DNA of 64,000 nucleotides from Paraspadella gotoi (taxonomy: Eukaryota > Animalia > Chaetognatha), in contig CM119264.1 of the NCBI GenBank assembly GCA_051294375.1, positions 4,739,352 to 4,803,351 on the forward strand, in the 5' to 3' direction. The notes beneath the pieces are model-generated. The model searched no databases, was not told the origin of the DNA, and worked only from the letters and a program-made list of their open reading frames with translations. Of this stretch, positions 16,199 through 64,000 are shown in pieces. Within the stretch, counting starts at the first letter, position 1, and each line of letters opens with the position of its first letter. The position numbers and the translations under genes were made by a program.

Positions 16199-18414
16199 GG
16201 CGGAATTTAAAAGGAAAAAATAGGGAGGAGAGAAGGAATTTGCTTTTTTTGACGCCGACGAGATTCGTTTTAATTCCGCAGTTTGAGATCGGGTCTCGAC
16301 GGAAGAAAGAGAGACGGTTTTTTTTTATTACCAAATGTCGTTTTTTTTTTATCGTCAAACGAGTCACATGATGGGTCGCCGCCGCCTAGCACGAAAAATG
16401 AAAACACGGACAGTGATTGGTCGAGGCTTAATGGACGAACGAAGGCGATTGGCGGAAAATTTTGGAAGGACCTTACCTTTTCCCCTTATCGAGAAGCAGG
16501 TTCCTACTTTTCCTCGGCGAGTGGCGCGAGAGAGAGAGAGAGAGAGACACGCTGGGACTTATTTTTCTCTTTCGACTCGCACGAAAAGACGCCAGCTTAG
16601 CAGGGAAACTGAAAACATGGATGATGATTGGACGCTGCTCGACGGGCGAGCGATTATGATTGGCGGAGGAGAAATACCCAGGACCTTACCTTCCAAATAA
16701 GAGTGGGTTCTCCCCTCACCATGTCGGCAAAATTGAAGATTGGATTCGGGGCGGATGTCTCGCGACGAAAAAGCGTCGCGTGGTCGGAGGAAAGGGGGCG
16801 TTTTATTCTTTTTCTCTCTTAACATTTCATGTTGTATATGAAATCGATGAGAGTGAAGAGAGAATCGTCAAGAACAAAAGATCTCGGCGGACGAGAAGCG
16901 ACATCAGAATTTATTCGGTCCGAATATCGAACAAAAAACGTGTATTTGGGAAAGGTCAATCCCATGCTTGGCTACAAGAAAAGAATTTCTATTTTATCGG
17001 TGTACATAATGGTAAAAAAAACTTTTCTTAAAGTTAAACGCGGAAAATAAAATGATCGACTTTGTAAACACTCCCTATTTATTTATTATTTATTTATTTA
17101 TTTACTATTTTAAATCAGTATTTAAGAAAAAGAAAAAACCTTTTAAATTTGACATGACGTGAGGATAGTGATCCTTAAGTTTTATAAAGCTTTATCTCAT
17201 AAACGATGACAAAGAAAAATGACGAAACGTTTTGCACATTAAAGCTAGCAGTAAACTAACTAGAATGTCAAGAAAGGTTAGATTCCTCAGTTTTAACAAA
17301 TTTAGTCACTAATTCAGTTACTTCCATAACAAAGAAAAACAACTTTAAGCAAGAATAAGAAAAATAAATTCGATAACAAAATAGGAATGACAGTTTAAAA
17401 CTTTATAACAAAGATTTTTAAATAAGTCAACTTATATAAATTAAGCAAGGCGACAAGATGATAGTGCACCATTTAAAAATCAACCATAACATTAAAAATC
17501 CAATGCTGATTTTGATATGTAAAGACAGGAAACTCATAAAAATTGTGTAAAAAATAGAGCCATGTAAATGATAAGAATAAAAAGGATTAGCAACTGGTAT
17601 CAGCGAACTCAATAAAAAAAAGTCACAAAAAAATTCCTGTAGTTTCAAGGGGATATAGATGTTAGTTTGATTTTCTCGACTACGGACTACAAAAAAATTG
17701 TATTTTCATTAGTTCATTCTTGAAAATTAATGTAGCACATCATGATTGAGCAGCCAATAGCTCGTAATACATAGTATTTCTAAAATTTCTAAAATATCAA
17801 CAATATGCAAAGCATACGAAATCACAGTAGGTTTAGCTAAAGAGGCATAGTGCAAATGATATGCAAACAAATGACAATCATTTGAGGGTCAGTTGTCTAA
17901 CTATTGTTAATGAAAAAAAATTACTGCAGCACCTTAGAAACGAGCACAGATTGCGAGTGACTTTGGCGTTAATAGACAGGTTATACAAGGTACTAGACAA
18001 AATGGGACGGGTTAAAAGAGGAATGATGCCAATTTTCAGTCACTGCTAATAAAAATAAAAAACTGAAATTTTTTCCTTAACTTAATCATTTTTACTTTAG
18101 AAAGAAAAGATAAGGAGTTAAAGTGGCACACCAAAAATTGCATTTCTTCCCTTCAGTTAAATGTTGGTGCATAGTTCAGCAAAAAATTTAAGTCCTAATC
18201 TAGAGGTTCCATATTGAATAAAATCATTAGTTAATTTTAAAATCATATTCCAAACAAATATCAACCGGACGCTAATATAGGTTTATTATATTACATATTC
18301 TACGATATAAATATTATAAAATACATAAAAATCTATTTTTATTAACAATAAAAGTTTAGATCGGATTTTTACAATGATGCTAAAACGTTCTTAAAACAAT
18401 TCCGTTTCCAAATT

Positions 18415-18480
18415 TTAATCAGCAACAACTGCTTCTTCGTATATATCAGGATCTTCGTCGTCGTCATCGTCGATTCCTTC
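18415..18480 (-). CDS. SLC4 distal terminal exon [21 protein letters not shown]
   Basis: TTGCAG acceptor, phase 0 after ...GELDK. The acidic tail with DIYEE resembles the DEYxE end of AE1-3. Confidence 0.75.
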   Translation of the reverse strand, partial: EGIDDDDDEDPDIYEEAVVAD

Positions 18481-21400
18481 CTGCAAAAAAAATCTAAGTT
18501 AAATACTCACAATCATAACGGCAATTGCTTAAGGACACGAAGTATTTGCAAGCATTTGTCGTTTGTTAAATGACTACCCTATTTAAAACTATATTTTCTA
18601 GTCATGGCTGTGGCGGAAGCTACATTTAGGCAAGTAGCAATAGCTTACCAGGATAACGCACCATTCTTCCCGTTCGTTCCGGGTTCAATCCTCTTAGGGA
18701 AGCGAGACGGTAATAGCGTCAACTCTGATGAGCACTGATGAACCGAAGCCCCAAAAGGCTAAAAGCCAACCAGTAAAATGCCCCGCGCCCCACTCCCCGA
18801 GCATTTCAGGGAATCTATACCGTTTTTAAACAGTATGATATAATTCCTTTCTTGCCTTAACATCTCTTTCTTTACTGTATCTTTCTTGCATTTATCATTT
18901 TATGTATTAGGTTTTGCCTAAACTTTCAATATTTTAAAATTCAACACATCCTCTTTTTCTCTCTACAGCGACTAATCATCAGAGTTGCGTAAGTTATCTT
19001 AAAAACCATGGACAGACAGAAATAGAGAATTTTTTTTTTAAGCCGGATCTGCTTAGTGCTTACAGCAGATTTCGGCTCTATAATTCACTTTGTCGGTCTG
19101 TCGGTCGCCACCCATTATCTTGTCGGTAAATTACTTATATCATCTCAGAACATCGAATTATAGAAAATTATACAAAATGTCCTTCCGTCCTTCCCTACTT
19201 AGTGTGGGGACTAGACCTTGCCAGAAAATTGAAAGTTTTTGATCTCGCTTAGTAGTAGGGTAAAAAAAGCTCCTCACTAAGGCGTAGTAAAATTTCTAAA
19301 TTTAACTTTAATTAAAATTCTAAAAGTGAGAACGAACGACATTATACTAATGAACATTTATATAATAAAAAAATTTATAATAAATTTTACAATTTACGCA
19401 GTAGGCCATTTTTATACTAGTACTAAAACCAATAAATGTTAAAATTTCAAAACAATTTTTTTAAAGATTTTTTTGCAGATTTGGATTCTCATAAAAAGTT
19501 GATAAAAATAAATATAACTTTTGAAAAATTCCTTCATTAAGTGGGTTAAAAATTAGAAAAAGCTATATTTTAAGCTGAAAATTAACTTTTTATATATTAA
19601 ATATAGTTTTTTTAATTTTTAACCCACTTAATGAAAGAATTTTTAAAAATGATTTATATTTTCTTTTATCAACTTTTGACGAGGAATTCAAATCTGCAAT
19701 CAAAATTAAGAAAAGCCTATTTTGAAATTTTTCGATTTTATAAGGATAGTACTATATATAAATATAGCCTACTGCGAAAATTAAAAAGCATAAAATTAAT
19801 TTTTTTTACAAATTAATGTTCACTGATGGTATGTTGTTCATAATTAACTTTCAGAATTTTCGTATGTAACTTTCACTACGCCTTACTCCTCACCCATGAC
19901 CATATTTTTTGCAATAATTTTCATTAGAAAAAAAATTCAGGAAACTTGAATTTACAATTAATATAAAAAGAAAAACAGTATAATTTCAAGCTTCATTAAT
20001 TAATTATTGATAAATTAGTAATTAATAAATTAATTATTAATTATATTGTAATTAATTAATTTATTTATCAATTAATTTTGTGATTGAGATTTTTATGATT
20101 TACGAAAAACGATTTTGACGCGATTAAAAAAAATTATTATTAATTATTTAATTTATTATTAAATTATCTGATCAGCTGCTTACCGCTAATGATCGTGGGC
20201 AGATCCGGCATTGTTTGCTCAAACTTTTTTCATTAACTTTGAAAAATGCCTGTCGCCACAACATAAAATTAATCAAAACTAAGCTGATAAATAAGAACAC
20301 AGGTTAGAAAAACAAAAAGTAATTACAACTAAGACCTATTTCAATATGCAGTTAATAAGAACATACTTTCCAAGCCTCAAGAATAAATTGAAAGTTAATT
20401 TGTAATTTAAACTCCCCGTTTTTTAACTAAAAGAAATTATCTCGCTAAAAAAATAATGAAATAATGGGTGCTTACTGCCAGTTAAGATATTTTTGCATGC
20501 ATTGATTTGTGATTTGTTTGTATTTGTCATAAAAGGAATTTCTTGTAAAGTCAGTCGTTATAAGATTTTTTATGTTAACTTAGAAGTAGAGCCAGGTTAT
20601 TTTCAAAATATCAATTATTCAGAGTGTTACAGCTAGACAAATGTGAATCACTGAGAGGGCAAAGCTTGAAATAGATTTTGGGTCAGATTCGTGCTAAAAA
20701 AACGTAATCATGCACATTCAAAACAATTTCAAAAACTTAGTTTTCCATATCTAAACAACATTAAAGTAGATAAAACTTTTTATTTCACTTATTAGGATAA
20801 CCACATCTACAATAAGAATAGATTATATTATTGCTACAATACACAGAGGAAAGGATTTGTAAACGAATTTTTCCTCACTGATGGGTCTCAAGTATTTACA
20901 TTAAAAATTGGTAAAAAAATATATTTAGAATCCATGAGACAATGGTTATCGCCAGGCAAGGCAATCGGGATTCTAAATCAAATAACGTTATATTTCTCAA
21001 AACCTACGTTTTATAAATTCCATGCATAATCCTCGTGTTTTTCTTCTTCATCATCATCTTCTTTATCTATACCCTCCTATACAACAAGAAGCATTGAAAA
21101 GGATGTACCCACAAATATGGTTAGCACAATTATTAGATTTTCGTGTTTACGTATTTCTTGAAAAAGAAGAGCGTTTTTAGTTAAAAAGTAAAATATATAT
21201 TAAATTATTTTGTTAAAGAAACCCATTTGATACTCCGGTACAAAATTATGTTTGGTTCTAAAATTACTTACAAGAATCTTTCATAGTAAATCTTGCTAAA
21301 TCGCATAAAGATCATTCTACATACAAAAAAACCAAACAATTTACCTTGTCTAATTCACCCAGTTCTTTTGGCGTAAATAAATATGGAATTACAAGCTTTC

Positions 21401-24400
21401 TTAAAGGGATAAGCATGATAAGAAAAAACGGAAACCCTGACAAGAAAAAATATAGATTAAAAATGAAATCAAATTTAACTAAGAACATTAAAGAAAAAAT
21501 TTACCTAGTGCAGCAGCTGTTGATTTGACAGCCCATAATACAGCTAAACAAGCGATTTGTATAAAGGTGTAAAGATGCATTTTATATGTTCTAACTTTCC
21601 TCACATATCCAACCTACAGGGAATAAGTAAAATACTATTTTTTATTTAATTTTGTTAAAGTTGATAACATAATACCAAAATTTTTTACTTTTTACCTGAG
21701 GATGATGTTTCAAAGGTCGGAAAAGCAAACCGATTCTAGTTAAAAACTGAATTCCCGCCATCGATGATATTCCTGATCATAAAGTATGTGTAATATAATA
21801 GATGTAGTATTAGTAGTAGATTTTAAAAATAGAAAAAATATTTTTATCAAATTAAACATACCCATGTATAGAAAAACTCCAAAAAGAACCGGGACGGGTA
21901 TTTTTCGCAGGACGGAAGACAAGGCAATCGAAACGCCAACCATTGTATTCACTGAATATTTTAAGTGAAATAATGTATACTCACATTGCTGGTAAAACTA
22001 CATGACATCTGTATTATTGTTACCAAGTAAATTAGTAAGGCGTTGTTCTTTCACTTCTAGTAACTTTGGAGCTTCTCCAGGGGCGTGAGATTTGGACATA
22101 ACAGAGAGAGAAGACGTGTGAGCAACAGAACGTACAGTTGCAGCAGTGTGCCATGGCACCCCCATAATACCACACCCTCCAGCCATTATTCCTAAAATAA
22201 TTTTTTATGAGAATTCTTTGTGAGTCATCGCATCGCAAGATTTAATTAAAGATCACACATGGGAGTACAGTTACAATATTTTTTTTATTTATGACCATTT
22301 AGAGAAAAAGTTTTTATTTTGTTACAAACAACGATTTTTTGTGTTAATAATAGCAGACATGTTTCGGCTCTAATAAAAAGTAAAAACTTTGTTTTCTCTA
22401 AATTCCAAACCGCAACGAAAAGAAAGGATTACACCATTAGACTGATCATCTTCAAGATCATGGACTTGATGACGACCTTGAATCACATTTGAAGACGAAC
22501 GTTTGGGAACCTGTTCTTGATGACTTGAAAAATGATGAGGAGCGGAGTGGTCATTGTCTCTCTCTCTCTTCTTTTTTTGGCTCCTACTCATTAGGCCCTT
22601 AAGATGAACTGTCTAATGGATCGAAATATTGGTCATAAATAAAAAAAAAATTGTACCTGTACATTGTACAATGTGATATTTAATTAAATCTTTATGAGAA
22701 GTTTCAAAAAAACCCTGTAAATCAAAAGGCTAATTTACTTTAAAACGATTACAAGCAAATCATTATTTGATCAGAAAAGTAGTGTCCGATTAAACCATCC
22801 AAATTACCTATGAGCAAAATATCAAGGTGATATCCACTTCCTTTCTTCAGATTTCTTTCTTTTTTGTTGACAATTTGAGAAGCAATAAGTGTTTCAATAA
22901 AAATCAAAATGAAAACTAATAAAGCCGGAATTACAGCCACGAATGGCATCCAAATTGGAATAGTCTTTCCCTGAGATAAAATAATTAAGTTTATTATTAA
23001 AGAAAACATTCTCTTAACATCTAGTCAACCATGCTTACATGAATTCCCAATGGGTTTATGAACCACCCACGTTTCTTAGAATCAGTCGGCTTGATCCCAT
23101 CTGGAACCTCTAATTTCTGGCTCCAAACATCTTTAATTATTAGATCAAATCCAACCACAATGATTATAGCAATAGGAATTCCAAAATCACCCAGAGCTCT
23201 ACGTATCTAAGAAAAATATTGCAAAGGAAATAAATTTTAATGATGTAATAAATTATCTTATTTAAAATAACAAAAGCAAACAAGTACTGGACGAAAAACT
23301 GAAGCTTTCACTGTCACTTTGTTGCAAATCTCCGATCTTCCGTCGATAAAAATAGGTTAATTCAATCGTCAAAAATAGCCATTAATTTACGAGACCTCGC
23401 CTAAGTGACAGATTAATTTTAAGCGGCATCCGTAACACACCTTTGCGAAATAAAAGCATCGAGCCTAAATTTAATCTTGTCCTGTCAAAGAAGAACCGCA
23501 ACTCGACACCGATAAAGATAAAGAGTTTTTTTTTTTAAATTACGTAAATACGGGAGAAGATCTTAAGAATGACGAGAAATGCGTCAAAATTCTCATTTCT
23601 GTGCTTATTTCGTGCTTCAAATAACTGCCCACTACCAAGGAGCGCAAATCCACAGATATAGGATCATTGTTTCCACGAAGAGTGGTCATGCAAACGTCGA
23701 AAAGTAAATCTATTAAATTCTGCAACAAATATGAACACACAAAATGACTGCAGAAAACTCGCAATCTTTCTCAATGACGCCAAAGGAGTATAACAAAAAA
23801 TTCCAATGCTTCAGGTAAAAGAAATTCGATATGTTCATTGATCGGGCTTAGCTATTTCCACTGGTTTTTTTCACGACTTTTCAATAGATGCTCAGACTCA
23901 TCTTGTGGGGCCGTTTGCGTCGGCATTGTGACGGCATTTCTAGGATTCATCTTGGGGGTCATATATTTCTCAATTCGCGCCATCACGACATCTTTACAAA
24001 ATACCGAAGTCGTTCCAACTTACGCAGTTGCGTTCTTGCTTCTTACATCTGGTTAGAAGCTAAATGGAGATCATTAAAAAAAAGAAATCACTTGAATTTG
24101 CTCTCAACCGTCTCTCCCTCTTTCAACTAGGGCTCCTCACAATGTGCCTTTCTCGAACAACTCGTAAACCGCGTATGATTATAGCTTCGATAGCATTTTG
24201 TCTACTAACCGGAGTTATATGTGCCACCGCAGCGGGACTCACTATTTGGAGAATTTTACCGGTCCTAATAATAAATAATTCCTGTCTTTATAGTCAAGCT
24301 AAAAAGGTATTTTTACCAACTTAAGTACAATGGAAACCTAAATAGAAAATTACGATAAAGGGATACGGGGATACTATCTCTACTTAGTACTCGGTCATAT

Positions 24401-27400
24401 TTTTATAACAAAACTAACGCCTCATTTTCTTTTAACTACACCAGAGTTGCCTATGTTACAATTCCAACAATATGGATCCGAGGGCAAACAAATCCGAATT
24501 GAAATCGTCTGACAACTCCTCTCCAGTTTTGTTCTTCAACGCTCCGAGTTGCGACGTGGTGGAACTAAATCTCAAAGAGTTCGTGTACGGTCTAGTCGCC
24601 CTATATATTGGCGGATGTCTCGTCAGCGGATGTAATATCGCCATCTCCATCTCGATGTGGCGACATATTCGCAAGACGAATCTTGCCAGGAGTAAGTCGA
24701 ATATTAATATTTTCCCTTGCTTCCATCCCTCCCTTCCAGACAAAACCCATTGTTTTTTGTTTTGTTTTTTTTTTTTTTTTTTACGCAAGTGGCACTCGGT
24801 CCTTTTCATTACGACGCTCGACGTTTCCGCAATTCACACCACATGGGGTCCCACTCAAGAAACCAAGCGTTTTCCAGGTTCTCAGTTCAAATGTCTTTCT
24901 CGTGTACTTTCTCTATTCTACTTAATAAACGTCAATTCATTTATCTCAGAACAATATACGTCCCGGAACGGGCTTTTGCCAGCGACGAATTGGAGCATTC
25001 CGCAGTCAGAGTGCACCGTTTTAATCTAGGAGCACAATGTGCGCAGAACTGCGATCACCTTTGTGGACAACATCTCCAACGAATGACTCAACAACAAACG
25101 AGAGAAGAAATCAACGGCCACCGACTAAGGCATTCGGAATCGGGGAGAAGATCAATGCGTCCCCCCACTAACGACGTTGTGGTGCCAACCCGGGATGCTG
25201 GCCTAAATCCCAATCAGCCAGGAGACGTGTTTTTTATATCTCTGCCAATGGATCCAAGAGAAGTTCCGCTTCCTCCTTACAATGAATTTTTTAATGGTCA
25301 AATTTGCAATTGTGAAATTCCCGAGGAGCCGATAATTTACAGGTTAGAATAAAAAAAAACGTTTAGAGACAGGGAAATACTTGAAAATAAATTAATAAAA
25401 TCAAAATTTATTTTTATAATTAAAATTAATTTGTATCTTTAACTGATCGAAAGGAAGCTTTAAAAATGTTGTTTCCAGGGATCCCCTACAAATAACAAAC
25501 GACTGTTCGGAATGTCTACAAGCATCCAGATCCCAGAGCAGAAGATGTGCCCTTTTTCGACGAGGGCCTTGGCTGTCGGATTCGCCGACGACTAGGCGTC
25601 GCGAGATCGTGGCGACGACGATTCCTTCGTCTCCGCCTCCACCTTATTCGTCGCCTCAAACCTCGAGGGGAAGCCGCCTTAAAGAAGAAGTCTCGAGAAA
25701 TGAAGAAATTCGCGACGTCCAAGTTGACGTCGTCGAAAATTCATCGCCACCGACGCCAAGGCTTCAAGCGGCAACGAAACCCATTAAACTTTCAGAGAGC
25801 ACGGCAAAAGGAGGTACTAACAACGGTGTAGAAGATTGTCAAATTGACGAACACATCGAAAACGTCGCCGTTTCACCGCGAGACGAAACTCGACGAATTA
25901 AGAGGGAAAAAGGGCAAGCGGGCCAACCCAAGTTTCCATGGCTACTTAAATCTAAATCAAAACAAAAGACAAAGCGACGTAAGGATGACGACTTTACTTC
26001 GCGAAAGTCAACGACGAAAGACGATCAGGAGGAAAAAACAACGAAGAAGAACAGGGAAGAAAATGACCTCGAAATCTTGGCCAGAAAAAAAAAGCCAGGG
26101 AGAAGTCAAACGACGAAATCGACGAACCTTCGTCGCACGGAGACATCGTCCACCGCCGTCTCGAGGAAAACCTCCACAGCCAAAGAGCTGAACAAAATTC
26201 TTAAGGAGAGCAACCGGAGATTAAGGAAGGAAAAGAAGGAAGGGAAAACAGCGAAAAGCCAAGAGGCGGAGATGGGGGAGACGAGATCACGAATCCGTCA
26301 CAGAACCGCCGACGTCTTCAACGACGCCGCATTGGCGGAACGATTCGGCGACGTGGAGAGGAGACGGAACGAGAGGATGGGCGTAACGCCAGTTGACGAG
26401 GAACTGGCGCCGTCAGAACAAAGGAGAAAGAGGAGGGAATCAGCTATCGAGATTCAAAGGAGAAGGAAGAAGAGGATCAGCGAAACCATGATATGAGGAT
26501 GGGATTAGATTGCTGTCTTCGTTTTCTTTCACTTTTATTAATAATTAAATTAATTACAACTTGTCCTTAATTGTAACCATTCACTACAAACTTAAATTTG
26601 TCTATAAAGATTTTGAGCTAAAAAAAAGCATCAGATAATATGTACTATATAGGTGAAAAAAATTCGACCGCGATGAGCCAATCCTTGATCGTAAACGTCT
26701 TTTGCCGCCTCGATAAATTTGAGAGAGAGAGAGAGAGAGAGAGCATTTGTTAGACGAGGCCTCCCCTAGATACTGAGCAGGATGAAGGAGAATCAACGAG
26801 TTCAAAGGTCGACCGTAAAAATAAAATAAAGAATTTCGGAGTCTATTCTTAACATCGATCAAACTAAAATGTAGGTAGTGTGGCCGTATACCACCCTATA
26901 CCGTATACTACCCTATACCGTATACCACATTAGTAGTTAAAAATCCTTCATTATCTTTGAAAACCGCAATTCACTCCAGCACTCCACAACCCTTACTCAC
27001 GCTGCGGCCAAGAAACTGGCTGTTCCTGAACTTCTTGAGATAAGTGGCGATGAAGAAGGTGGCAAAGAGGAGGATGGTGGCGAGGAGGCCGGTGTTCGGG
27101 TCGGCGTGAGGCCTCGCGGAATCAGGTTCGTCGGACGAAATGCTAGAGGAGTTCCAGACGCTGGAATTGATGGCCTCCGCACCCTCCACGTAAACAAGGG
27201 GGTTCTTCTCGAAAATCGTTTTCAGTTTGCTGAGGGGAATGGGTAAAGGAAGGGGGAGTTGGTATGAAGGATTGCGAGGGAAAATCGATGCGACTCAAAA
27301 GCGAGTCACTTACTTGAACACTTCATAGACAAAAATGAGGGAAATGAGGAAAGCGAAGATCTCCTCGGAGAAGCGGGAGAGAAGCGAAGCGAGGGAGGAG

Positions 27401-30400
27401 CCTTCGGCGGCGACGAGCAAGACGGCGATGATGGCGATCCAAATGCCGACCCAAGCGCGGAACACGATGAACTGGATCTGGCGGAGGTCAGGAATGGGGA
27501 GGAGGGAAGGAGGGAGAAAGTAGGGAAAAGTGATTCACGACGGAATCACGAGTTCAAAGCTTACGTCGTTGTTGGTGCAAAACTCGTAAAGAGATTCTTC
27601 GAAAACGAGAAGAGGACCGGTGTAGCCAATGATCAAAAGCGGTTGACCTAATAGAAGAAATTTCAGTTGTGAGGGAATCACAAAAGATTATACATACATT
27701 AGTGAAAATGAATACCAACATGAGTCAACAAAAACTATTAGAATAACCAAACAATTTTTAAAGTTCTACCACTAAGTCTCAACAAGCTATTGACGCATTG
27801 CTATGCCTCTCATCAGGTAAGCTGATCCTCTAAGCTACTTTATATTCTGCGAGGTAATTTTTTTAAATTTAAATTAAAGACGGGCTCCAAAATGTTGCGA
27901 CTTAATCTTTCTGAAACGAATATTTCACGAATGATGAATCGATGATCAAAGGGAATCTAAATCACCTGGCTTCGATTATGAAAAGATTCACAAAGACTGC
28001 ATTTTACGAACACTCCGAACGCGGCTCGGGATAATTATCTCCCGTCGAGAAAAATAGGGGGTTTTCGACCCCTAACGAGAAAAGAACATCTATCAAACGA
28101 GGGGGGAGGGTGTGTGAGGGTTCTCGAAAGGCAGGAATAAAAGTAAAGCTCCTCCCCCCACTGGCGCTCCTCACTTATCCTGGCCTTTTTCTCCGACAAA
28201 CGGATGTATTTTTTTTAAAGGTGAAGCGAATGGGTTTTTTTTTCTCTAGAAAAGGCAAATTTATATTTACAACGCTGTTAAATAATAAAAACAAATCGAA
28301 TATTTTTTCCCTCCAGAGAGAAAGAAAGAGAAACTGATGGGCATCAGCCACTGCTCTCCCCGCTTGACATTAAAAAGCGGCGAGAAAAAAAAAAGTAAAA
28401 ATCTGAACAGAAACACGAATCGATTTCTTCTTTTTTTTTTCATTTCTCAATGACGATAATGGATGCGTAAAGATGGAAAGAAGGAGAGAAATCGGCGTGA
28501 GTCTCGTATGTGAGTCTCACCAAGTCGCTTTTCGGAAGGAGAGACGTGCGCGAGCAAAATGCCGACGACGACCTTGGGAGAAACGACCCAAAACTGACGA
28601 CTTAAATGCGTTTTAGATGATCCGCTCGAGAAGATCCTTTTCTCTCTCACGCATAGTTTTGTGATATGATTCCAATACGATACTCAGTCCTACCGTGACG
28701 ACTATAAAAAATTAATGATATTTGAAACAATAAAAAACTACATCTTATCGTATTTTTTCGACGGGAGCCGAAATAATTTTTTTTAAAAAATTTGTGTTAA
28801 TTTTTTTTCTGAAAAAAGAGGCGATCTAAGAACTCGCGATGCTATGTTATTTTATCTTCGTCTCCTTCATCGGAATGAGCGTTCAAAGGCAATGGAACTA
28901 TCATCACGTTAACGAGTGGGGTGGATCGTGTCAAACGGGAAACCGTCAATCTCCTATAGATTTAGTTTCAAAAAGTAAGACTCCACGCAAAGTTAATTGT
29001 TAAACAGTCCGGGTTTATTTAAAGAAAATTATAGAAAATAATCATTTCTAAAGGAAAAAAAATAAGTAAATTTAAAATATTCAATTTCTATAATTTCCTT
29101 TTTTCATTTTCTTTTATTTAAGAATTTACCTCTTACGAGGCGGTGGAATTCAACGATGCGGCAAGAGAACCGATATCGGGCAGCGATGCCGTCACCCTCA
29201 AAGTCGTGAGTATTATTATTAGGACGGCCTTTGATCAGTTCTCGGTCAACGCTTTTCACTTTTCACGATTTCAGCTCAACGACGGTCACACAATAAAAGT
29301 TCACGGCCCGCTCTTTGATAGAATCGAAGTCAGCGGGGGAGGACTGAAGTCGACGTACCGGGGGAAGCAGCTGCATTTTCATTGGGGCATCGACGACGGA
29401 GAAGGATCAGAACACACGGTGGATGGAAAGGATTTTCCCTTAGAGATGCACCTCGTCACGTACAAGGCCAAATTCAAAAATCTGACCGAAGCCGTCGCAT
29501 CCGGGGAAAAGGACGCGCTCGCCGCTTTCGGAGTCTTGCACCAAGTTAAAGGTGTGACTGCGTCTGTCTGGCTTCGGTTATTGTCCTACTTTTTATTTTT
29601 ATAGTAACAAAATAATCAATGTATAAATTCCCCACTTCCCTTAGATTCTCCACCGACACCAATCGACAAATTGAGATACGCGATCGGCGAGGTGGTTCCC
29701 GCCGTCCACAGGGAGGTCTCTCTCCGATCGGCACCCGGATTCTCAATCAGGGATTTGTTTCCCGATCGGCTGGATCGATTCTTTCGCTACGGCGGAAGCG
29801 TTACCACGCCCTCCTGCGCGGAACTCGTGTCATGGACAGTTTTTCGAGACGTCAAATCGGTGAAATGGGAAGCCGTGAGTCTCTTCAGAAAGGTGAAAGA
29901 CTCAACAAAAGATTTAACGGGTGACCAAACCATGAAATTTTATATTCGCTTCGTAATTCCCTTCATACAGACGAAAGGAGTGCACGGATCGGCGATAGAG
30001 TTCAACAAAAGGCCACTGCAGAAGTTGGGGGACCGGGTCATTTTGACCAATTCTGCGACGGCGATAATTACTACGAATTGGGGGGCGTTTACCGCGATAT
30101 TGTTACTCATCCTTAATCGACTCCAACAGAAGAACTTTGTTATCCTAATCAATTAAGACGGAAATCTCTGCACGCAGCAGGATTGAAAACCTATTCCAGT
30201 TTGAATGAACTAACTGCAAATCAAGTTTACCATATCAAAATTCTTAACTTTTAATTGGAAATATTTTTACGTATTAATTTTAAACTTACCTCGGCACCTT
30301 TGCTGAAAATTTCAGTATTTCTAATAATTGTTTCCTTATGCACTAAATAATGATCTAATTCAATTCAATTAAATATAACTTTTTAACAAACTTTCAATCC

Positions 30401-33400
30401 AAAATTTATAAAGAAAAATGGATAATTTTTATGAGTAGAAAATAACGGACAACTGCATCAAGGCTGAAAAAACTATTGAATAAGTAGGTGCAATGAAAGC
30501 GCGTTCAATAAAGTCAACTTGAAAAAAATGGGAGAGTAGAAAAACAAAGAAAAAACTGACCAGCCAAAAGGGAGAAAATGACGCCGCAGACGCAGGTAGA
30601 AACGAGAGTCTCCGTGACGCCGATCCAGTTGTTGGTCTTGTCCGCCAGGAGTCCGCCGAACGTGATGGCGGGCGAGAGGCAGGCGAAGTATATAAAAAAG
30701 AACGAGGCGAGGCACTAAACGCCAAAGAAAGTATTTTCTATAAATAAACGAAGACGACCAGGAATATGAAAATTAATTAATTATGAATAATTTATAATAA
30801 GTAAATAATAAATAAATAATTAATAATTAATTAATTAATTAATCGCACCTGCATGTTGAGCCCGTCCTTAAAATCGCTTAAGTAGTGTCTGTAGCGGCGT
30901 CTTGCGTCCCGAATGGCCCCGCCGAAGGGTCGCCCCGTCCGTTTGAACGAACCGTCTGGTGGCGGCTTTTTCTCACCGTCTGGAACTGTCGAGTAATTAC
31001 GTAAATGCTTTATTTTCTTTCCTTTGATTTTCAGAATAGCTAAAAGTTCCCCAAGTCTTAGACAACATTCGTTCTTTAACGACTTTCGAGTGTTTATTTA
31101 AGTAGCGGCATAGGTCAACATTGTCTTTGTTTGCCAACAATAAATTCCCTATGAATCCCCACATCCACCCCTTCTTCGTCCCAACCCTACCCAGCAGCTC
31201 CTTCTCCTCGTCCCTCTTCTTCCGCCTCTTGACGGGATTCTCCATGGCGAGTTTGGGGAGGAGTTTGGAGTTCCAGGCGCCAGGCGGGAGCACCACCGAG
31301 TCGTCGAGGAATTCGTTGATGGCCTGGAGGAGGACCTCGCGCTCCTCGGCCTGATAGGCCGACTCGTGGAAGGTGGTGTTCGCCATCAGGGTGGAGATCG
31401 AGCGACCGATCTCGTGGTAGTTGACGATTTCCTGTGCGTTGGGGGGGGGTGTTAATGTATTCAATAGATGAGTCACTCTAAAAAAAAAAAACTCTTTAAT
31501 TTAATTTAATCACCTGATCGTCCGGGCCGAGCAGGATGAAGATGAAGCGAACTGGAAGAGGGACCTCCGTCAAATTTCCAAGATGGCGTCCTTCCGACAA
31601 ACGAACGAACCCCATCGCGGGCTGGTCCAGAAAACTGACCGCGCCTGTATTAGGGAAAGCAATCGTTGAGAAAAAGATGGAACGGAGGAACGACTTAATT
31701 CCTTCCCTCCTTCCTTCCTTCCCGAGTTTTCCTCAACTTACCGACCAAGACGGCGAAAGCTTCCGCACCCTCCGGGATTTTCTTGAGAATCTCCGCTTTG
31801 TGGAGGTCCTTTGTCTCTTCGGGCATTTTGTAGGCGACGTTGTTTCGGTTCAGGTTCGAGGTCACCTGGTGATAAGAGTCATAACACTTAGAGAAACAAA
31901 AAAAAGAAAGAAAAGAAGGAAGAAAGGAAGGAATGAATGAAAGAAAAAAAATGGGAAAAAAAAGAAAGAAAAAAGGGAAAGAAAGAAAAAGAGAGAAAGA
32001 AATAAAAAGAGAAAAAAAAAGAGAAAAAAAGAAAAAGAGAGAAAGAAATAAAAAGAGAAAAAAAAAGAGAAAAAAAGAAAAAGAGAGAAAGAAAGAAAAA
32101 AAGAGAAAAAAAGAAAAGAAAGAAAAAGAGAGAAAGAAAAAGAAAAAAAGAAAAAAAGAGAAAGAAAAAGAAAAAGAAAAAAAGAAAAAGAAAGAAAGAA
32201 AAAAAGAAAAAGAGAGAAAGAAAAAGAAAAAGAGAAAAAAAAGAGAGAAAAAAAGAAAAAGAGAGAAAAAAGAAAAGAGAGAAGAAAGAAAAGAGAGAAA
32301 AAAAAAAGAAGAAAGAAAAAAGAGAGAAAAAAAAGAGAAAAATAAAAAAAGAAAAAAATAAAAAAAAATAATAAAAAATAATAAAATAATAAAAAAAGAG
32401 AGAGAAAAAAAGAAAAAGAGAGAAAGGAAAGAAAAAGAGAGAAAAAAAAGAGAAAAATAAAAAAAGAAAAAAAGAAAAAATAATAATAAAAAAAAATAAA
32501 AAAAAGAAAAAAATAAAAAGAAAGAGAAATTAGAGAGTAGAAAAAAGAAAAGAAAAAAGAAGAAAAAAAAGGAAAAAAAAAGAAAAAAGAAGAGAAAAAA
32601 AAACGGAGAAAAAAAAAGAGCGTTTAAAAAAGTTACAAGAAGAGATACAGTATTTCATTTGGGCTTCTGCGCAGTAAACTCAAGCCCACCAGCCTCTCAC
32701 CTTATCATCGCGAAGATTCTTCTTCTCCAACTCGTCATCGGTCTCCCCGACGGTGAAGACGACCCGCGGGCCTTCCTCCGTCCGAAGATCCCCTCGCGAG
32801 GGAATCCCCACCAAAGAGTTGGAACCCTTGATGCTTCTTCCGTCTTCGATCAAACTTTTTCGATCTTCCTTCGCATCGGCGACGAAGGGCTGAGTCTCCG
32901 AGACTGGAAGAAGCGAACGAAAACGGGCATCGGTTTAACTTTGAAAAGGCAACTATGCAATATGTATTAAGGCGGGCCAGAATTTATTTTTTACAGTATG
33001 AAATATTGTCTGCATTAAAAGTCTTTTGTCCTTTTACAACCAAATTGACTTATGAAGTTAGATTTTGATTAAATTCATTTTCATCATGAATGGAAGCATT
33101 TTAATATTAAAGAATATATAAGAAATGCTTAAAAAGATTTTTAAGAAATTTAAATTTTTAAAAATGTATTCTGATAAAGATAAAAAAGTTAGATAAAGGT
33201 TAGTATTAAAAATGTCAAAAATTTTAATGTTAAAAAGGTTAAAATTTGAAAAACCTTAAAAAATCATCATCATCATCATCATTCAATAAATTTGATAGTT
33301 TTGTTAATTTTTATAAACAAATAATTAAAATTTCAACTTTTCAAGCTCTATCAGAATCCGATAAAAAAAATTAAAAATTATTCAAAAATTTTTTGGACAT

Positions 33401-36400
33401 AATATAGTATTTGGATAATACAAAATAGCTTCCATGCGTCTAACTATAATATAAATTTTATTTTTTTTATTTTTACGATCTCTAATAAACACATTAACAA
33501 TATTTATATATTATATAATATATATGTATACTAAGAAAGGAGGGGGACATTAGAGATTTTACTGAAAAGATTTTAACACCTTAATAGATCGAGACCATAA
33601 GACTAAGCGTATTATTACTAAGAATTCCTAGAGCTATGGTTTTTAACACCTTTCATGTTCAATTCTTCCGTTGCTTTCCCGCTTTCATCATCTTCGTGTC
33701 CTGAAAAAATATTTGATAACGGATTGGGAAAGCCTAGCAATTGCAGCTATCTGACGAATAACATAAAACACTATTTTGAGGGTTAAGAGTAAATGGAGGG
33801 AGAGTTGTAAGAGATAGATTCTTAGAATAATACTAAATGAGATTGAGATTTCATCAATCTCATTTGCATATAGTAGTAAATAATTTTAAGTCCAATTAAC
33901 TTTTGTAGTTTTATTATTAGGCATATTTTTGGATTTTACAATGCTTTTCTATATTGTTTAGTAGTTTAATTGATTCATAGATAATTTTGTGCTAATTTGA
34001 CAGAGTAATTATGTCATTAATAATTGAGAGTTTATGTCTATCCTGGCTGATCTTTTCATAACTCAAATACTTTATTATTTAAAAGTGAAATCAATCCGCT
34101 TGACATTTTTCGTTTTTTACTTTTTCTGGTTTTATGATTTTTACATTTGATCCTTGAACGTTCTTGAACGTTATTTATAGTTTCTTATGAATTAGTTCAT
34201 AACATTTATTAATGATTTTAAACGTTAGTGTCTTTTGTTTTTATTGAATTTCAATATGTAGTTTAGTTTTTACTTTTTTTCCAGTCTTTTAAACGTTAGT
34301 GTCTTTTGTTTTTATTAAATTTCAATACATAGTTTAGTTTTCCAGTCTTTTACACTGTTACTGTTTATGATTATGTTAATACTGTTTTTGATATTAAAAT
34401 AAAATTTAAAAAAAAGGAAGTACTTTCATGTTAAAAAAAAAACTCTCATGTTAGAGTCGCAAATCTCTGAAGTCCTTGCTCAATGTATTAAGTGTTGAAT
34501 ACTTGTAGTAAATAAACAAAAAAATAAACAATAATTATATTTGTATTGAGTTATTTAGCTATAGTAATAAATCTCAGGTAAAATAGAAAGACAACGCGAG
34601 CACTATCACTGAAGATGCAAGTAACAAATAATATATAATCCATAACCTGAGTCCCACTGCTATAGAGTGAAAACAAAAAACGAAAATAAGGCGATCCTTA
34701 CCTGCGCCAGCGGATCGAAACGAGACGTTTGAAAAATTTCGCTGAAATCTGGAGAGGAGCGACTCTCCAGATTGGAGTCCATCGTGCTGATGTTGCCTTG
34801 GGCAATAGAGAAATAGAAAATGTACTCTTCGTCAAAATATAATTCAGCAAACGGGAAAGTTATTAAATATTGTATAAAAACCTTCATAGATTTTAAAAAA
34901 AAGTCACCGAAAAAAATCATTCAAATATACAACTACGTCTACGAATTGGTTTTCATCGTACGTATCCTGAAGCTGTAATCCCATCACTAATGATGGAGAC
35001 TAATTCACTATCTTATAGTTTGTAAATTGTAAAAAGTGTGCGGTCTTTCACACTTACGTATTTAAAAACAACTGTCTATCCTTTTAAAGAAACGCATTTC
35101 CGTCAAAGTATAGTAGTTCATAGGAATTTTGTTCAAATCTAAAATATTTTTACGGTTAGGGACCAAGGCCAATTTTTTACTCGTTCATTTCAATCTTTTG
35201 AATACTTTTAAATTTTCACATTTTGAAAGCTCAAATAGTTCAGGGGAAAACGAAACTGGGTCAAGTAACACTATTAGGCTAAGGGTGGCGCCAAATAGGC
35301 TCTGTTTCAGTGATCGCGTATAATACTGTTTAATGTATATTAAATCTAATAGGAACTAAAATGGAATCAAGCATGCTCGATAAAAAAAGCGTCTAATACA
35401 TGAACTACGAAGCACTAAGTGAATTTTAAAACATACAAAGGAGTTAGCGTTCAAGAAAAGAATAATACTACTGCTGAAACTTGGTGACCAACTCCAAGAA
35501 TAATATATATAAAAAAATATACGCCAAAATTGTGCATTTTATTTTTCGTTCCCAAAGAGTCATGGGCGAAAAAAACACAAAAAAGGGGAAAAAGCTGGTT
35601 ACTAAATAAGAAAAAGGCAAATATTTGAAAAATTATAATTTACTACAAATGGCGCGCGCTCTCTGAATAAACAAATTAATTACCCAGAATGACGAAACCT
35701 CGCAAGTCCTACCGCTATCCTAATCATCCTATCCCTATTCAGAGTCAACTAGGTCGTTAAAATACATAGTAATTTCGCAGTCTAGCCAAAAGATCGCTAG
35801 GCGCCAAAGAGACTCGGATCTTTCATATTAATCGATTTTGTTTGACCCAACGATATTGTACAATCTCTAATACTCTATCTCTCTATCCTAATTTTTTAAT
35901 CGTAACGTCATTAACGTCATCGTTAAAGTGATAAGTTCTACAATACTAAGAGCCAATCAGTCGTGAAGGTGATGATTGATATACAAAATTTTACAAGTGA
36001 ATATGTGTATATCTGTATGTGAATATAATATATATTTTTTTTAAATAAATAGGGATGGATAAAAAATAAAGAAATTTGAAATGGCAATTAAAAAAAAGAG
36101 CAATTTCAGAACCGTTCCCAAATATATTAGCAACAACTTTTTTTTTTCATTCCAAATTAGTTGTTACTACTTTTTGAAATATCATACTTAGTTGCAGAAT
36201 AGTTTCTCAGGCTTTTTCGCCTTAACTCTGAAGGATGGAGCGCAGAACTTATTTTCCTGAGCCTCGGTGCATTATCTTCCGAATGACTAAGGGTGAATAT
36301 CGATTAAGTGTTTAAAAATGGGTTTAAGCGTGAGAAGTAAAAGTGGACAAATAGGTACAGGGTGACTGGTGAGTTGTTTCTTTCAATATCCTACAATCTG

Positions 36401-39400
36401 ACGTGACAAATGTGCGAGACAACAAACTTTCTTAAACGCGAATGTGTGCATGTAGTCCTTGTGAAATATGATTCAGCCCCCTGAAAATATTGCGAGTCAC
36501 AAATATTTGGATAGTAATATTATAGAAGATATAGCGTTTTCAGTTTGCCGCAATCATGCACTATAAATATGTAAACAAAAATTTACTACCTAAATTTGTG
36601 TGAAGCACCAGCTATGTCATCAAGACTTAAAACTGTGTTGTTGTTACTCAAATCCGGTTTTACGCGTTTTGAAAATTGGTCCTATAAAAAACAGGTCAGG
36701 AAAAAAAAACCGTCGCTTAAGCGAAAAAAGGTCGCGATGGACGTTACCGAAATGGACAGCTCAGAAATAGAAAATGATCTACTGGTCCTGTGGCGCGCCT
36801 CCTCGCCAAAGACACCGAGCGGCTTTTGAAAATCTACGGAACGAAATTTACGGAAAAGAAAAAATGTGGGAAATGTGGGAGATGAAACCGTCCACAAAGA
36901 GTAAGCGACAGATGGCGCAAATAATGGCAGCCATACCGTCATCTTTTTTGTTTTTTTCGTTATCAACACCGGTGGAAGCGGAAAACTGAGTCTTTGTGGC
37001 TGAAGGTGAGATTTGCTTTGAAACAAGAGCCGTTCCTGCGCCTAATCAAAGATTTGGAAGTCAACTTGCGATCTATGTAAATATTTAATATGGGCTAAAC
37101 CAAAGACCTTTCTTCGATTTGTTATCGTTATTGTGATGATGATGAAAATGAGGCAAGTGAGGGTGATGATGATGATGTTCCAAATCTTTGTGGCTTTTTT
37201 TGGTTATCAAAGAAAAAAGTAGAAAATTCCCGAGTATAACAAAAAATCGTCAGCATAGAAGTAAGAGAAAAATAAAATTTAATTGCGAAAGGTGTCTTCT
37301 AGATGGAATCGCGCATTTTCTGTTTCGCCAGCATCTCTACACCACAATACCTGTGCTTGAGTAAAAGAGCTTTCAAGACGTCTTCTCTGTTTTTCTCTTT
37401 AATTTGTCCAACTTCGATCATCTGCTCTACGATCGCACCGATGATGTGCGGAAAATCAACTTCTTCCAAATCCAAAATGATGGTTCCTGAGAAATGACGT
37501 ATTCGGAGAGAAAGTAAAAAGGTATCAACGTAACCACCGAACGATAGATCCGGTCCACTTACCGAGTTCCAACCCTCGCCTCAGTTCAAGCAAGCTGTGA
37601 AAAGAGAGAATGGCGACGTGAGGCCGACCCCATCGGTTGGCCCCCTCTTCAATGTCCTCCTCAAACTTGATCCATCGCGCCATTTCTCTCCACTCCATTT
37701 CCTCCCCGGTCTCTCCGACGCGCAACTCTTCCAGTTCAACGAAAACCTGATGAAAAGCGATGATTTTTTATTTTGTTAATATTTGGTATTCCGGGATAAA
37801 TTCTGGGTCTGACCTCATGGGGACTGTGATCGAATTTCTTTTTAACCGGCGAGGACTTGGGCACTTGCAGTTCGTTACTCCCCCGCCTGTGGGCTGAAAA
37901 ACAGACAAAAAAAATCTTAAAAGTAATGATCTCGCCAGAAAATTAATAAAAAATATGAAAAAAAAAACCGATTGATTGATGCGATAACGAATTATTGAAG
38001 TAATAGTAATTGATTGATTGATGTAATAGTAAAGTGTGTCCCAAAGGTATTGTCGGTTATGAAAAGCTTACTGCTCCTATACCAGATCGAAAAACTTTAA
38101 TTTATTATAATGAATATGCGCACAAGTTTGGACCATTTCATAGGATACTGTGGCGGTATATTCACACCGCCTAATGTCCACCATCCTTCAGCCAAATCCA
38201 TTGGCTCAGAGGGGGAACACACCATCCCAGGCGTAGTGTTCCATCCACAGTCCTAACGACTTCCCTCTGCGTTGGCAAAGCGAGACCGTCCTAGGGTAAC
38301 CGCGCCAGTGACTGGAGGCGTCACTGAGGGTCGGAAGCCCCCAAAGCCAACAGTGAGTCATCACAGGCAACCCGGCTGTTGCCATAATACTTAAATTTTA
38401 AAAATTGAACAAAGCAAACTCCTGTAGTTATTACAATTGGTAAAAATTTCTTTTCAGTGATTTCTTTAAATAAATTCTTAAATGATATATTTTTGAATAT
38501 TTATCAACTATTTTTTTTTAAATATTAATTAAATAATGTTTTAAATCTTTTCTTTAGATGCAGGACAGTAAGAAACTACCTCATATTTTTAGCTCCATAG
38601 CTTTTATAATGCAGTAATCATTATTTATAAATTATCTACTTACCTTGTTTAATGTTCATATTACTTTTTTAATTGATTTAATAATAATAATTTATTGAAT
38701 AAATAGCAACCATTTTGTTCTGGCTTAATGATTCCATCGCTCACAACTTCAAATAATAAAATTTAAATATCAAATTAATTAGCATATTTTTATCAATTTA
38801 TATATATTTTTTAAATATTTGTTTATTTTTTTATTAATACACTTATTGTATTTTAAACAAATAGAAATTTAAATAATTTATATCTATTTAAAATATTTTT
38901 TACTTAATTTTTTTAATAATATTTATTTTAAAATAAAAAATATATCTAAAAATTAAAAAAGTGAAAAATGAGGACTCAATTAAATTGAATGTTCTGCAAA
39001 GAAAAATTGATAAAAATTGAATTCGAAATATAGTATCATAAATTGTAAGAACTTATCTTTGACATTGTTATCTCAGAAATAACATTTAATAACACAGTTC
39101 TGCAGTCTGCACAATATGTAAAAGTTAACCGACAGTATTATTAAGACAATAATTGATTTATTTATATAATAGTAATTGATTGATTGATGTAATAGTAATA
39201 ATTAATAGATGTAATAATAATTGATTGATTGATGTAATAGTAATTGATTATTGATGCGATGATAACCAAATGTTGGATGCGATGATAACCAAATGATGGA
39301 TGTGATGATAAGCAAATGATGGATGTGATAAGCAAGATGATGGATGATAGCAAATGACTGGATGTGATGATAAGCAAATGATGGATGTGATGATACAAAT

Positions 39401-40429
39401 GATATGGATGTGCAAGATGAATGGAGCTAGCAATGATGGATGTGATGATAAGCAAATGATGGATGTGATGATAAGCAAAATGATGGAGTGATGATGAAGT
39501 GGATGGAGATAAGCAAATGATGGATGTGATGATAAGCAAATGATGGATGTGAATGATAAGCAAATGATGGATGTGATGATAAGCAAATGATGGATGTGAT
39601 GATAAGCAAATGATGGATGTGATGATAAGCAAATGATGGATGTGATGATAAGCAGAATGATGGATGTGATGATAAGCAAATGATGGATGTGATGATAAGC
39701 AAATGATGATGTGATGATAAGCAAATGATGGATGTGATGATAAGAAGATGGATGAATGATGAGAGAAAGATGATGGATGTGATGATAAGCAAATGATGGA
39801 TGTGATGATAAGCAAATGATGGATGTGATGATAAGCAAATGATGATGTGATGATAAGCAATGATGATGTGATGATAGCATTCATTGACGCGATGATAGTC
39901 ATTCATTGACGCGATGATAGTCATTCATTGACGCGATTGATAGTCATTCATTGACGCGATGATAGTCATTCATTGACGCGATGATAGTCATCATTGACGC
40001 GATGATAGTCATTCATTGACGCGATGATAGTCATTCATTGACGCGATGATAGTCATTCATTGAACGCGATGATAGTCATTCATTGACGCGATGATAGTCA
40101 TTCATTGACGCGATGATAGTCATTCATTGACGCGCATGAATAGTCATTCATTGACGCGATGATAGTCATTCATTGACGCGATGATAGTCATTCATTGACG
40201 CGATGATAGTCATTCATTGACGCGATGATAGTCATTCATTGACGCGATGATAGTCCATTCATTGACGCGATGATAGTCATTCATTGGATCGCGATGATAG
40301 TCATTCATTGACGCGATGATAGTCATTCATTGACTGCGATGATAGTCATTCAATTGATGCCGTATGATAGTCTTCATTGACGCGATGAGTCATTCATTGT
40401 AAATAAAAACAAACAAATGCGTGTATGAC

Positions 40430-57256: not shown

Positions 57257-64000
<6,744 letters not shown>

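Follow-up and report, generated by a model that had tools for sequence, protein, structure and literature searches.

At the cholinergic locus, the VAChT and ChAT genes lie on the same strand. [quoted passage not shown] More broadly, nested genes are reported to account for 9.5% of Drosophila genes; these pairs show expression correlation and functional relatedness no higher than random pairs, and the nested genes evolve faster (PMC3814207). In C. elegans, 567 opposite-strand nested pairs are described, and more than half of the opposite nested pairs have at least one cell type in common (PMC12274878). As for carbonic anhydrases (CAs) and SLC4 bicarbonate transporters, the idea that an extracellular CA and its transporter work as a unit is biochemically disputed (PMC3794380), and our literature search returned no published report of a CA nested in an SLC4 intron.

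We examined a 64,000-nt stretch of the Paraspadella gotoi genome (contig CM119264.1), termed the window, which contains such a pair. The host is an AE-type SLC4 gene, mapped in part at 21011..37893 on the minus strand using RNA contigs, Pfam, alignment of an Owenia AE and PDB matches. Twelve of its introns, between 21437 and 31513, are RNA-confirmed, while the last exon (21011-21076) and the exons above 31700 are predicted only. Both the Band_3_cyto and HCO3_cotransp Pfam domains are present. Two of its exons match AE1-3 at 2e-15 to 4e-14 and 6e-16 to 2e-12, as against 5e-10 to 4e-8 and 3e-5 to 5e-4 for NBC/NDCBE. By sequence, the host belongs to the AE subfamily, being nearer AE1-3 than NBC, NDCBE or BTR1, and is a predicted Cl-/HCO3- exchanger. 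The SLC4 tree has supports of 95/94 for bilaterians and 87/91 for protostomes. Separately, in a tree built from a quick search, the window's SorLA groups with a hemichordate sequence (96 SH-aLRT).

The host intron lies at 27648..30560 (minus strand, 2913 nt, phase 1, GT-AG) and interrupts the codon of the Gly that joins FSLLA to QPLLII. It is flanked upstream by the exon that starts the membrane domain (30561..30714, minus strand), which is RNA-joined and has its best PDB matches in AE1, AE3 and AE2, and downstream by the exon beginning QPLLII (27565..27647, minus strand), with RNA joints. An RNA contig from run X1 omits precisely 27648-30560, with boundaries reading CT..AC on the plus strand. 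The Owenia AE, when spliced onto the window DNA, is collinear across this intron and a second one of 3794 nt, and recovers both. A Mytilus isoform (P0125), which is mis-annotated, resumes at GQPL, and the acceptor hint there is uninterpretable. At 2913 nt, the host intron compares with a median of 84 nt among 19 RNA-confirmed introns, and nearly all of it is taken up by the CA and the CA upstream region. The CA transcript falls wholly inside, 250 nt from the intron donor and 1039 nt from the acceptor, and both genes are spliced in RNA contigs, which is the geometry of opposite-strand nesting. An Rfam scan of 17000-32000 gave 0 matches.

The initial annotation had placed a five-exon alpha-CA antisense in this SLC4 intron, and the X1 contigs bear out its coordinates and structure. 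It had also called for RNA joining 30561 to 27647 and for transcription of the CA; one X1 contig splices exactly there, and another, of 1235 nt, is the spliced CA. Runs X2 and X3 yielded 0 contigs at the locus, which counts neither way. RNA support consists of assembled contigs from one bulk run in one study, with contig depths of about 100 for the CA and 180-210 for SLC4, values that do not rank the two in expression.

The CA gene is on the plus strand. Exon 1 (28687..28974) carries a 5' UTR from at least 28687, the ATG at 28839, a signal-like N-terminus, the first Cys and a QSP motif, as seen from the RNA contig and hydropathy. Exon 2 (29123..29205) is defined by RNA joints. RNA and alignments place the equivalents of His64, His94, His96, Glu106, Glu117 and His119, with the changes Asn62 to Asp and Val143 to Ala, in exon 3 (29275..29551), and Thr199, Thr200, the second Cys and Trp209, with Leu198 to Val, in exon 4 (29645..29892). 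Exon 5 (29971..30309), also from the RNA contig, has an N-x-R-P motif, an N-S-A omega-like site, a hydrophobic stretch, the stop at 30154-30156 and a 3' UTR to at least 30309. All four introns (148, 69, 93 and 78 nt) are GT-AG and are spliced out in the 1235-nt contig (28687-30309), and the protein of the nearest homologue, P0036, reproduces all four lengths when spliced onto the window DNA. The CA would have a promoter of its own, in 27648-28686. A bacterial promoter scan, whose model is inapplicable to animal DNA, stayed at shuffle level.

The ORF encodes 309 aa uninterrupted by stops, and Pfam Carb_anhydrase (PF00194) scores 95.5 and 62.4 bits on its two long ORFs, against a cut-off of 27. 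Residues are given in CA II numbering with labels assigned from motifs, and their roles follow, in part, PMC7642793. In alignments to CA VII, CA XIV and 102 homologues, His94/96/119, Glu106, Thr199 and His64 are all kept, and the Cys23/Cys203 pair, of the extracellular disulfide type, aligns with Cys in all 102 homologues; the zinc ligands, catalytic residues and two cysteines first listed from the sequence are all there. The description of this CA as intact holds for the essential residues and needs amending for three rare active-site changes: Val at 198, seen in none of the 102 homologues, Ala at 143, seen in two, and Asp at 62. Three of the five positions of the hydrophobic CO2 pocket (Val121, Val143, Leu198, Val207, Trp209) are identical, and the Ala and Val replacements are both smaller. 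In CA II, larger side chains in this pocket are reported to cause severe activity loss (PMC7642793). The enzyme would hydrate CO2, at a rate that may fall below that of CA II.

In terms of localization, hydropathy agrees with the signal-like N-terminus proposed earlier (11-residue hydropathy 2.5, with a short h-region), and this end weakly matches the N-termini of CA IV and of an alpha-CA from an alga. The product would be secreted, disulfide-stabilised and anchored extracellularly. As to how, the proposed GPI-like tail has an N-S-A site, common to P0036 (46% identity over 270 aa), and a hydrophobic stretch after it. Beyond this stretch follow 13 residues including Arg and Lys, a basic end comparably long in 9 of 79 homologous tails, which also fits a single-pass anchor. 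We consider GPI anchoring outside the cell the likelier prediction, and a single-pass segment possible, at clearly lower probability. A predicted fold of the homologue P0036, as opposed to the window's CA, had a mean pLDDT of 52 and was set aside.

The CA is accompanied by a second antisense predicted gene, overlooked in the initial annotation, in the neighbouring large SLC4 intron. This intron (23207..27000, minus strand, 3794 nt) has an RNA joint and a position common to three comparison loci (L017, L035, L068). The predicted gene (23774..26496, plus strand) has seven exons, all GT-AG, and an intact ORF of 708 aa, which has several hydrophobic segments as well as a tail that is long and charged. 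Its pieces fall in no Pfam family, giving only a weak DUF7859 match (E 0.036), and one of its exons searched against Atlas gave nothing above 0.78. RNA contigs over it have a depth of 2-6, similar to the intronic background of 2.6-5.1 and indicating neither expression nor silence. We assume that it is functionally unrelated to bicarbonate. A 22-nt element lies upstream of each passenger on the plus strand, at 28037..28058 for the CA and, in a repeat comparison, at 23335..23356 for the second gene (20 of 22 positions identical), with a partial inverted copy at about 28753-28768. As for transposons as a source of the insertions, the repeat table showed no conspicuous terminal repeats.

Comparison with the distant taxa sampled gave no second instance. 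A CA was found beside SLC4 in 0 of 80 loci, with the window as positive control, and none of the 80 has an intron at the host-intron codon, while the position of the 3794-nt intron recurs in three. These loci, kept from 189, come from distant taxa and include many cDNAs or intronless genes; an intron was predicted in 35, of which about 17 are credible by our judgement. Likewise, AE and CA are on different contigs, of unequal length, in all ten species with both hits, read by eye in distant taxa and with one or two CAs sampled per species, each of which has more.

We think the locus is probably a lineage-specific, incidental opposite-strand nesting of a CA in an AE-type exchanger gene. The CA would have arrived by a lineage-specific insertion, tolerated rather than needed by both genes, and its retained introns indicate that it moved as DNA and not as a retrocopy. 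Since a further predicted gene, seemingly unrelated, occupies a neighbouring large intron in the same manner, the pairing is likely an insertion accident. The fast-evolving CA sites would also agree with the reported tendency of nested genes to evolve faster. In cells expressing both genes, the CA would supply or remove HCO3- where the exchanger faces the outside, a general action of extracellular CAs that would need neither binding nor nesting. Against incidental nesting stands the chance of finding a CA among two or three passengers, about 0.1-0.4% on assumed counts of 10-20 CAs among 15,000-20,000 genes. Published work moreover describes extracellular-type CAs, the kind found here, as acting together with AE1 and NBCe1 (PMC3794380, PMC7226098), and the cell types shared within more than half of the opposite nested C. 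elegans pairs also count against it (PMC12274878).

A selected acid-base locus, in which the exchanger captured an extracellular CA and shared enhancers or open chromatin bring about co-expression in ion-transporting cells, is in our opinion unlikely, though it ranks next. The two products have a common substrate and matching topology, with an extracellular-type CA and an AE1-like loop: the fourth extracellular loop of the host aligns with AE1 601-655, reported to bind CA IV (PMC7226098). This motif is, however, general to the family, occurring in 39 of 73 full-length SLC4 homologues by a strict pattern, and the direct binding in the metabolon is disputed (PMC3794380). A CA is an improbable passenger a priori, CA and SLC4 transcripts both occur in run X1, a nested C. 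elegans gene is reported able to induce its host (PMC12274878), and a copepod genome is described as clustering ion-transport genes that include CA and SLC4 (PMC11706791). A single locus with shared enhancers is nevertheless weakened by the second antisense passenger in the same gene, by the lack of nesting in the 80 loci and ten species of distant taxa, and by the random-like behaviour of Drosophila pairs. The cholinergic locus, by contrast, is reported as conserved from nematodes to mammals (PMC3053374). With the SLC4 and SorLA trees placing the lineage differently, a calcification role is neither supported nor excluded, and nothing speaks for it.

Less probable still is an interference switch, where convergent transcription would make the CA and the exchanger mutually exclusive and so separate acid-handling cell types. 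The opposite-strand geometry would suit it, Drosophila nested pairs are reported to diverge in expression beyond other pairs, ascribed to transcriptional interference (PMC5174743), and in C. elegans the mean co-expression of nested pairs is below that of neighbours (PMC12274878). Such divergence is the default outcome of nesting, however, and not necessarily a function, and C. elegans ceh-10/polq-1 are described as co-transcribed from the same locus (PMC12274878).

Finally, an artefact, either two SLC4 fragments wrongly assembled on both sides of a nearby CA or a CA pseudogene undergoing decay, could draw on the abrupt GC3 shift within SLC4 (0.54-0.90 above 27001, 0.22-0.47 below 23206), the three rare CA changes and the single RNA run, but is already largely refuted and very improbable: each of the two large introns is spliced out at canonical sites in RNA contigs, the foreign AE is collinear across them, the nested region is free of N-runs, the CA reading frame stays open, with every intron removed and a sequence identical to RNA in the four pieces listed, and the X1 contigs, by splicing the host intron and carrying the CA, exclude misassembly and a silent CA.

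At present, the incidental nesting that we favour leaves a clean, RNA-verified nested pair of suggestive identity in a compact animal genome. If the nesting proved conserved and the genes co-expressed, it would support coupling independently, from the genomic side, and supply a natural enzyme-transporter pair for assays. A truly selected locus would follow the cholinergic one as the second nested enzyme-transporter locus and would argue genetically that CA-SLC4 coupling matters in vivo. A caution is that this meaningful-looking pair lies three exons away from a second passenger without a known link to bicarbonate.

Among known systems, the locus resembles the CA IV/CA IX-AE1/NBCe1 metabolon in combining an extracellular-type alpha-CA with an SLC4 protein of similar fourth extracellular loop (PMC3794380, PMC7226098). 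The metabolon is a protein-level claim of disputed binding, with genomic nesting unmentioned in the parts of these papers drawn on here, whereas our pair is described at the level of genes and RNA. In the copepod Eurytemora carolleeae, CA and SLC4 are also among spatially clustered ion-transport genes; this clustering is at chromosome scale, and the word "nested" is absent from the article's main text (PMC11706791). The CA itself is like invertebrate membrane-associated alpha-CAs (nearest P0036) in its signal-like start, Cys23/Cys203, catalytic core and N-S-A site with hydrophobic tail, and differs in its Val198, Ala143 and Asp62 and its longer, more basic tail end.

As in the cholinergic locus, an enzyme shares a nested locus with a transporter of the same pathway (PMC3053374). 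Here it is the enzyme that is nested, in five exons, antisense and in a mid-gene intron, with conservation not found in 80 loci and ten species. The arrangement is that of the opposite-strand nested genes described in Drosophila and C. elegans (ceh-10/polq-1), with a multi-exon passenger wholly within a host intron, and it shares with human NF1, which holds OMG, EVI2A and EVI2B, more than one passenger per host (PMC3814207, PMC12274878, PMC4394429). Unlike most nested genes, reported as functionally unrelated to their hosts (PMC4394429), the passenger and host described here act on the same substrate.

The SLC4 gene, on the minus strand, is interrupted within a Gly codon, with exon 30561-30714 (-) stopping after FSLLA and exon 27565-27647 (-) restarting at QPLLII. 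The intron between them (27648-30560, -) measures 2913 nt and has GT and AG ends. On its plus strand, five exons join into a 309-aa ORF, the carbonic anhydrase (CA). The RNA basis is one study, where one of three runs (X1) has contigs at the locus. This record was taken as RNA by guess only, a reading supported by contigs that skip GT-AG introns. Within 26500-31750, X1 yields 11 contigs, 10 of which match at 99% or more. The bases 27648-30560 are absent from one contig, which thus holds the SLC4 joint from 30561 to 27647, set as a test beforehand. A single 1235-nt contig spans 28687-30309 with the four CA introns spliced out. Opposite strands follow from the intron ends, CT..AC in SLC4 and GT..AG in the CA. 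The split exchanger and the five-exon CA of the initial annotation are therefore borne out: these are two transcribed genes on opposite strands, both spliced. Within this one study's data, the bridging contig rules out a misassembly and the spliced contig a silent CA.

Further placement of X1 contigs confirms the SLC4 joints as far as 21437, one of them across an intron of 3794 nt (15 joints listed, 19 more beyond the listing). Using a custom spliced aligner for protein-to-DNA intron recovery, the Owenia AE query recovered both large SLC4 introns. The nearest CA homologue (P0036) recovered all four CA intron lengths, while three further CA queries found 3, 1 and 2 of them, respectively.

The host's exons carry the Pfam domains Band_3_cyto and HCO3_cotransp. 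For two host exons, the matches to solved AE1, AE2 and AE3 are far stronger than those to NBCe1, NBCn1, NDCBE or BTR1, so by sequence the host is AE-type, and Cl-/HCO3- exchange is predicted from the family. Its closest full-length relative is the Owenia AE (56% over 723 aa). A tree of 35 AE-like matches, picked by hand to cover a wide range, groups it with bilaterians (95/94) and, weakly, with protostomes (87/91). The neighbouring SorLA (SORL1) gene (6696-16384, -), with an 864-codon open stretch under one unspliced RNA piece, has at most 50% identity to any SorLA-length match and falls beside a hemichordate in a quick tree. Judged from these genes, the source is a bilaterian animal without close annotated relatives. 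None of the findings bears on the calcification role raised in the initial annotation.

Composition varies within this single spliced SLC4 gene (-). GC3 is 0.22-0.47 and CpG o/e 0.67 at 21343-23206, versus 0.54-0.90 and 1.16 at 27001-31866; the rest of the window is CpG-rich. A 700-nt A/G simple repeat (31890-32619) lies within an SLC4 intron, and abutting 23-nt and 22-nt minisatellite arrays (39150-40399) lie just upstream of the mapped exons. The AT-rich stretch 18500-20230, with many slightly different contigs, a summed depth in the thousands and no Rfam match, is probably a transcribed multicopy repeat. Elsewhere, we found an EF-hand (calmodulin-like) gene (123-428, -), a DUF3105 gene (1507-1818, -) and a SAM-domain gene (57700-62600, -), which we take to be liprin-alpha-like.

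As for the CA, it matches the alpha-CA family PF00194. Residues were numbered from motifs and from CA VII and CA XIV alignments. Compared with 102 single-domain homologues, the CA holds the equivalents of His94/96/119, Glu106, Glu117, His64, Thr199, Thr200, Trp209 and Arg246, and those of Cys23/Cys203; the zinc histidines, His64/Glu106/Thr199 and the two cysteines typical of secreted CAs had all been noticed initially. Three residues are unusual: Val for Leu198 (0 of 102 homologues), Ala for Val143 (2 of 102) and Asp for Asn62, outside the four commonest residues there. The RNA has no other letters in the CA region, so these residues are real. Positions 198, 143 and 62 are described as CO2-pocket or water-network residues, where larger side chains bring severe activity loss and several other changes cost few- to 20-fold (PMC7642793). 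The CA is predicted to be active, perhaps slower.

The signal-like N-terminus holds up, being hydrophobic over 11 residues (hydropathy 2.5). The GPI-like tail stands in part: N-S-A directly follows the domain, as in P0036, and a hydrophobic stretch is present (about 285-296), but 13 further residues follow, including Arg and Lys. A hydrophobic tail occurs in 79 of 89 single-domain homologues, and only 9 of the 79 extend as far past it. A GPI anchor is predicted as likelier than a single-pass anchor; under either, the predicted catalytic domain would face outward.

A CA in the same SLC4 intron of other genomes, as the initial annotation envisaged, did not appear in the distant taxa compared. 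Metagenome SLC4 loci were found with the exon preceding the host intron (189 confirmed, best 80 kept). With nine CA queries, none of these 80 has a CA beside SLC4, and the window was recovered as control. An intron at the host codon is absent from every locus (an intron was predicted somewhere in 35 of the 80, about 17 judged credible, and many loci are cDNAs), hence the host intron is likely lineage-specific. The position of the second large intron (23207-27000) recurs in three loci (L017, L035 and L068). In all ten species with AE and CA matches (Owenia, Lineus, Mytilus trossulus, Bradybaena, Biomphalaria, Mya, Physella, Oculina, Ylistrum and Candidula), the two lie on contigs of differing size, judged by eye on assemblies that may differ. 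Both comparisons are weak, given their distant taxa, many cDNA loci and the one or two CAs sampled in each species; they speak against an ancient locus shared across animals, though not against one confined to this phylum. Many metagenome loci hold intronless SLC4-like genes with 32-38% identity, several on 38-130 kb contigs (L010, L012, L014, L018, L019, L024-L026, L032, L036, L045-L048, L058, L064, L065 and others), and these look prokaryotic.

Among the 19 introns confirmed by RNA, the median length is 84 nt. The two length outliers are both in SLC4, separated by three small exons. The second, 23207-27000, contains an intact predicted antisense gene (23774-26496, +), overlooked in the initial annotation, whose seven exons join into an uninterrupted reading frame of 708 aa across six GT-AG introns, so the host likely carries two passengers, one without known bicarbonate link. 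The protein has several hydrophobic segments, a long charged tail and no Pfam family, and may be a CD20/sarcospan-type membrane protein. Contigs over it have a depth of 2-6, similar to intronic background. Two overlapping short ORFs (36575-36989, +; 84 and 72 aa, GC 0.42-0.45, no Pfam match) in an upstream SLC4 intron may represent a third passenger or else a remnant.

The regions upstream of both passengers share a 22-nt element, chosen after the fact, at 23335-23356 (+) and 28037-28058 (+), 20/22 identical. Among 100 simulated pairs the best match did not exceed 18/22, and among 34 real control segments it did not exceed 17/22. With as many as 3 mismatches allowed, the window has no other site beyond these regions; a partial inverted copy lies at about 28753-28768 (-). 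A GC-rich hairpin (28055-28074) follows the copy near the CA.

With 10-20 CAs assumed among 15,000-20,000 genes, the chance of finding a CA among two or three passengers is 0.1-0.4%, which is low for a single genome, though not across a scan of very many windows with many meaningful-looking enzyme-transporter pairs. We hold it reasonably probable that the nesting is incidental: the CA, which has introns, would have been transferred at the DNA level, either entering a lineage-specific intron or arriving along with it, and about 1 kb of upstream sequence would have come too. Drosophila nestings are reported to come mostly from insertion of duplicates, and nested pairs there correlate in expression or function no more than random pairs (PMC3814207, PMC5174743). 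C. elegans opposite nested pairs are described as on average less co-expressed than neighbours, while 52-61% have a cell type in common and a nested gene is able to induce its host (PMC12274878). A selected, co-regulated CA-SLC4 locus seems unlikely. In the exchanger, the fourth extracellular loop corresponds by alignment to AE1 601-655, reported as a CA IV binding site (PMC7226098), but this motif occurs throughout the family (39 of 73 by strict pattern) and direct CA-SLC4 binding is contested (PMC3794380). An interference switch between CA and exchanger is more doubtful still. An artefact is hardly credible with both genes spliced in RNA.

The nesting is real and verified, probably incidental, and apparently previously unreported: among the titles and abstract openings listed and in passages of PMC11706791, with few subscription papers among the sources, none described a CA sitting within an SLC4 gene. 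The cholinergic locus likewise pairs an enzyme with a transporter (PMC3053374); it is defined by conservation and co-regulation, whereas the CA/SLC4 nesting is likened to it by that pairing alone. Lastly, the CA/SLC4 pair belongs to the opposite-strand nested genes, as that class is described in PMC4394429.
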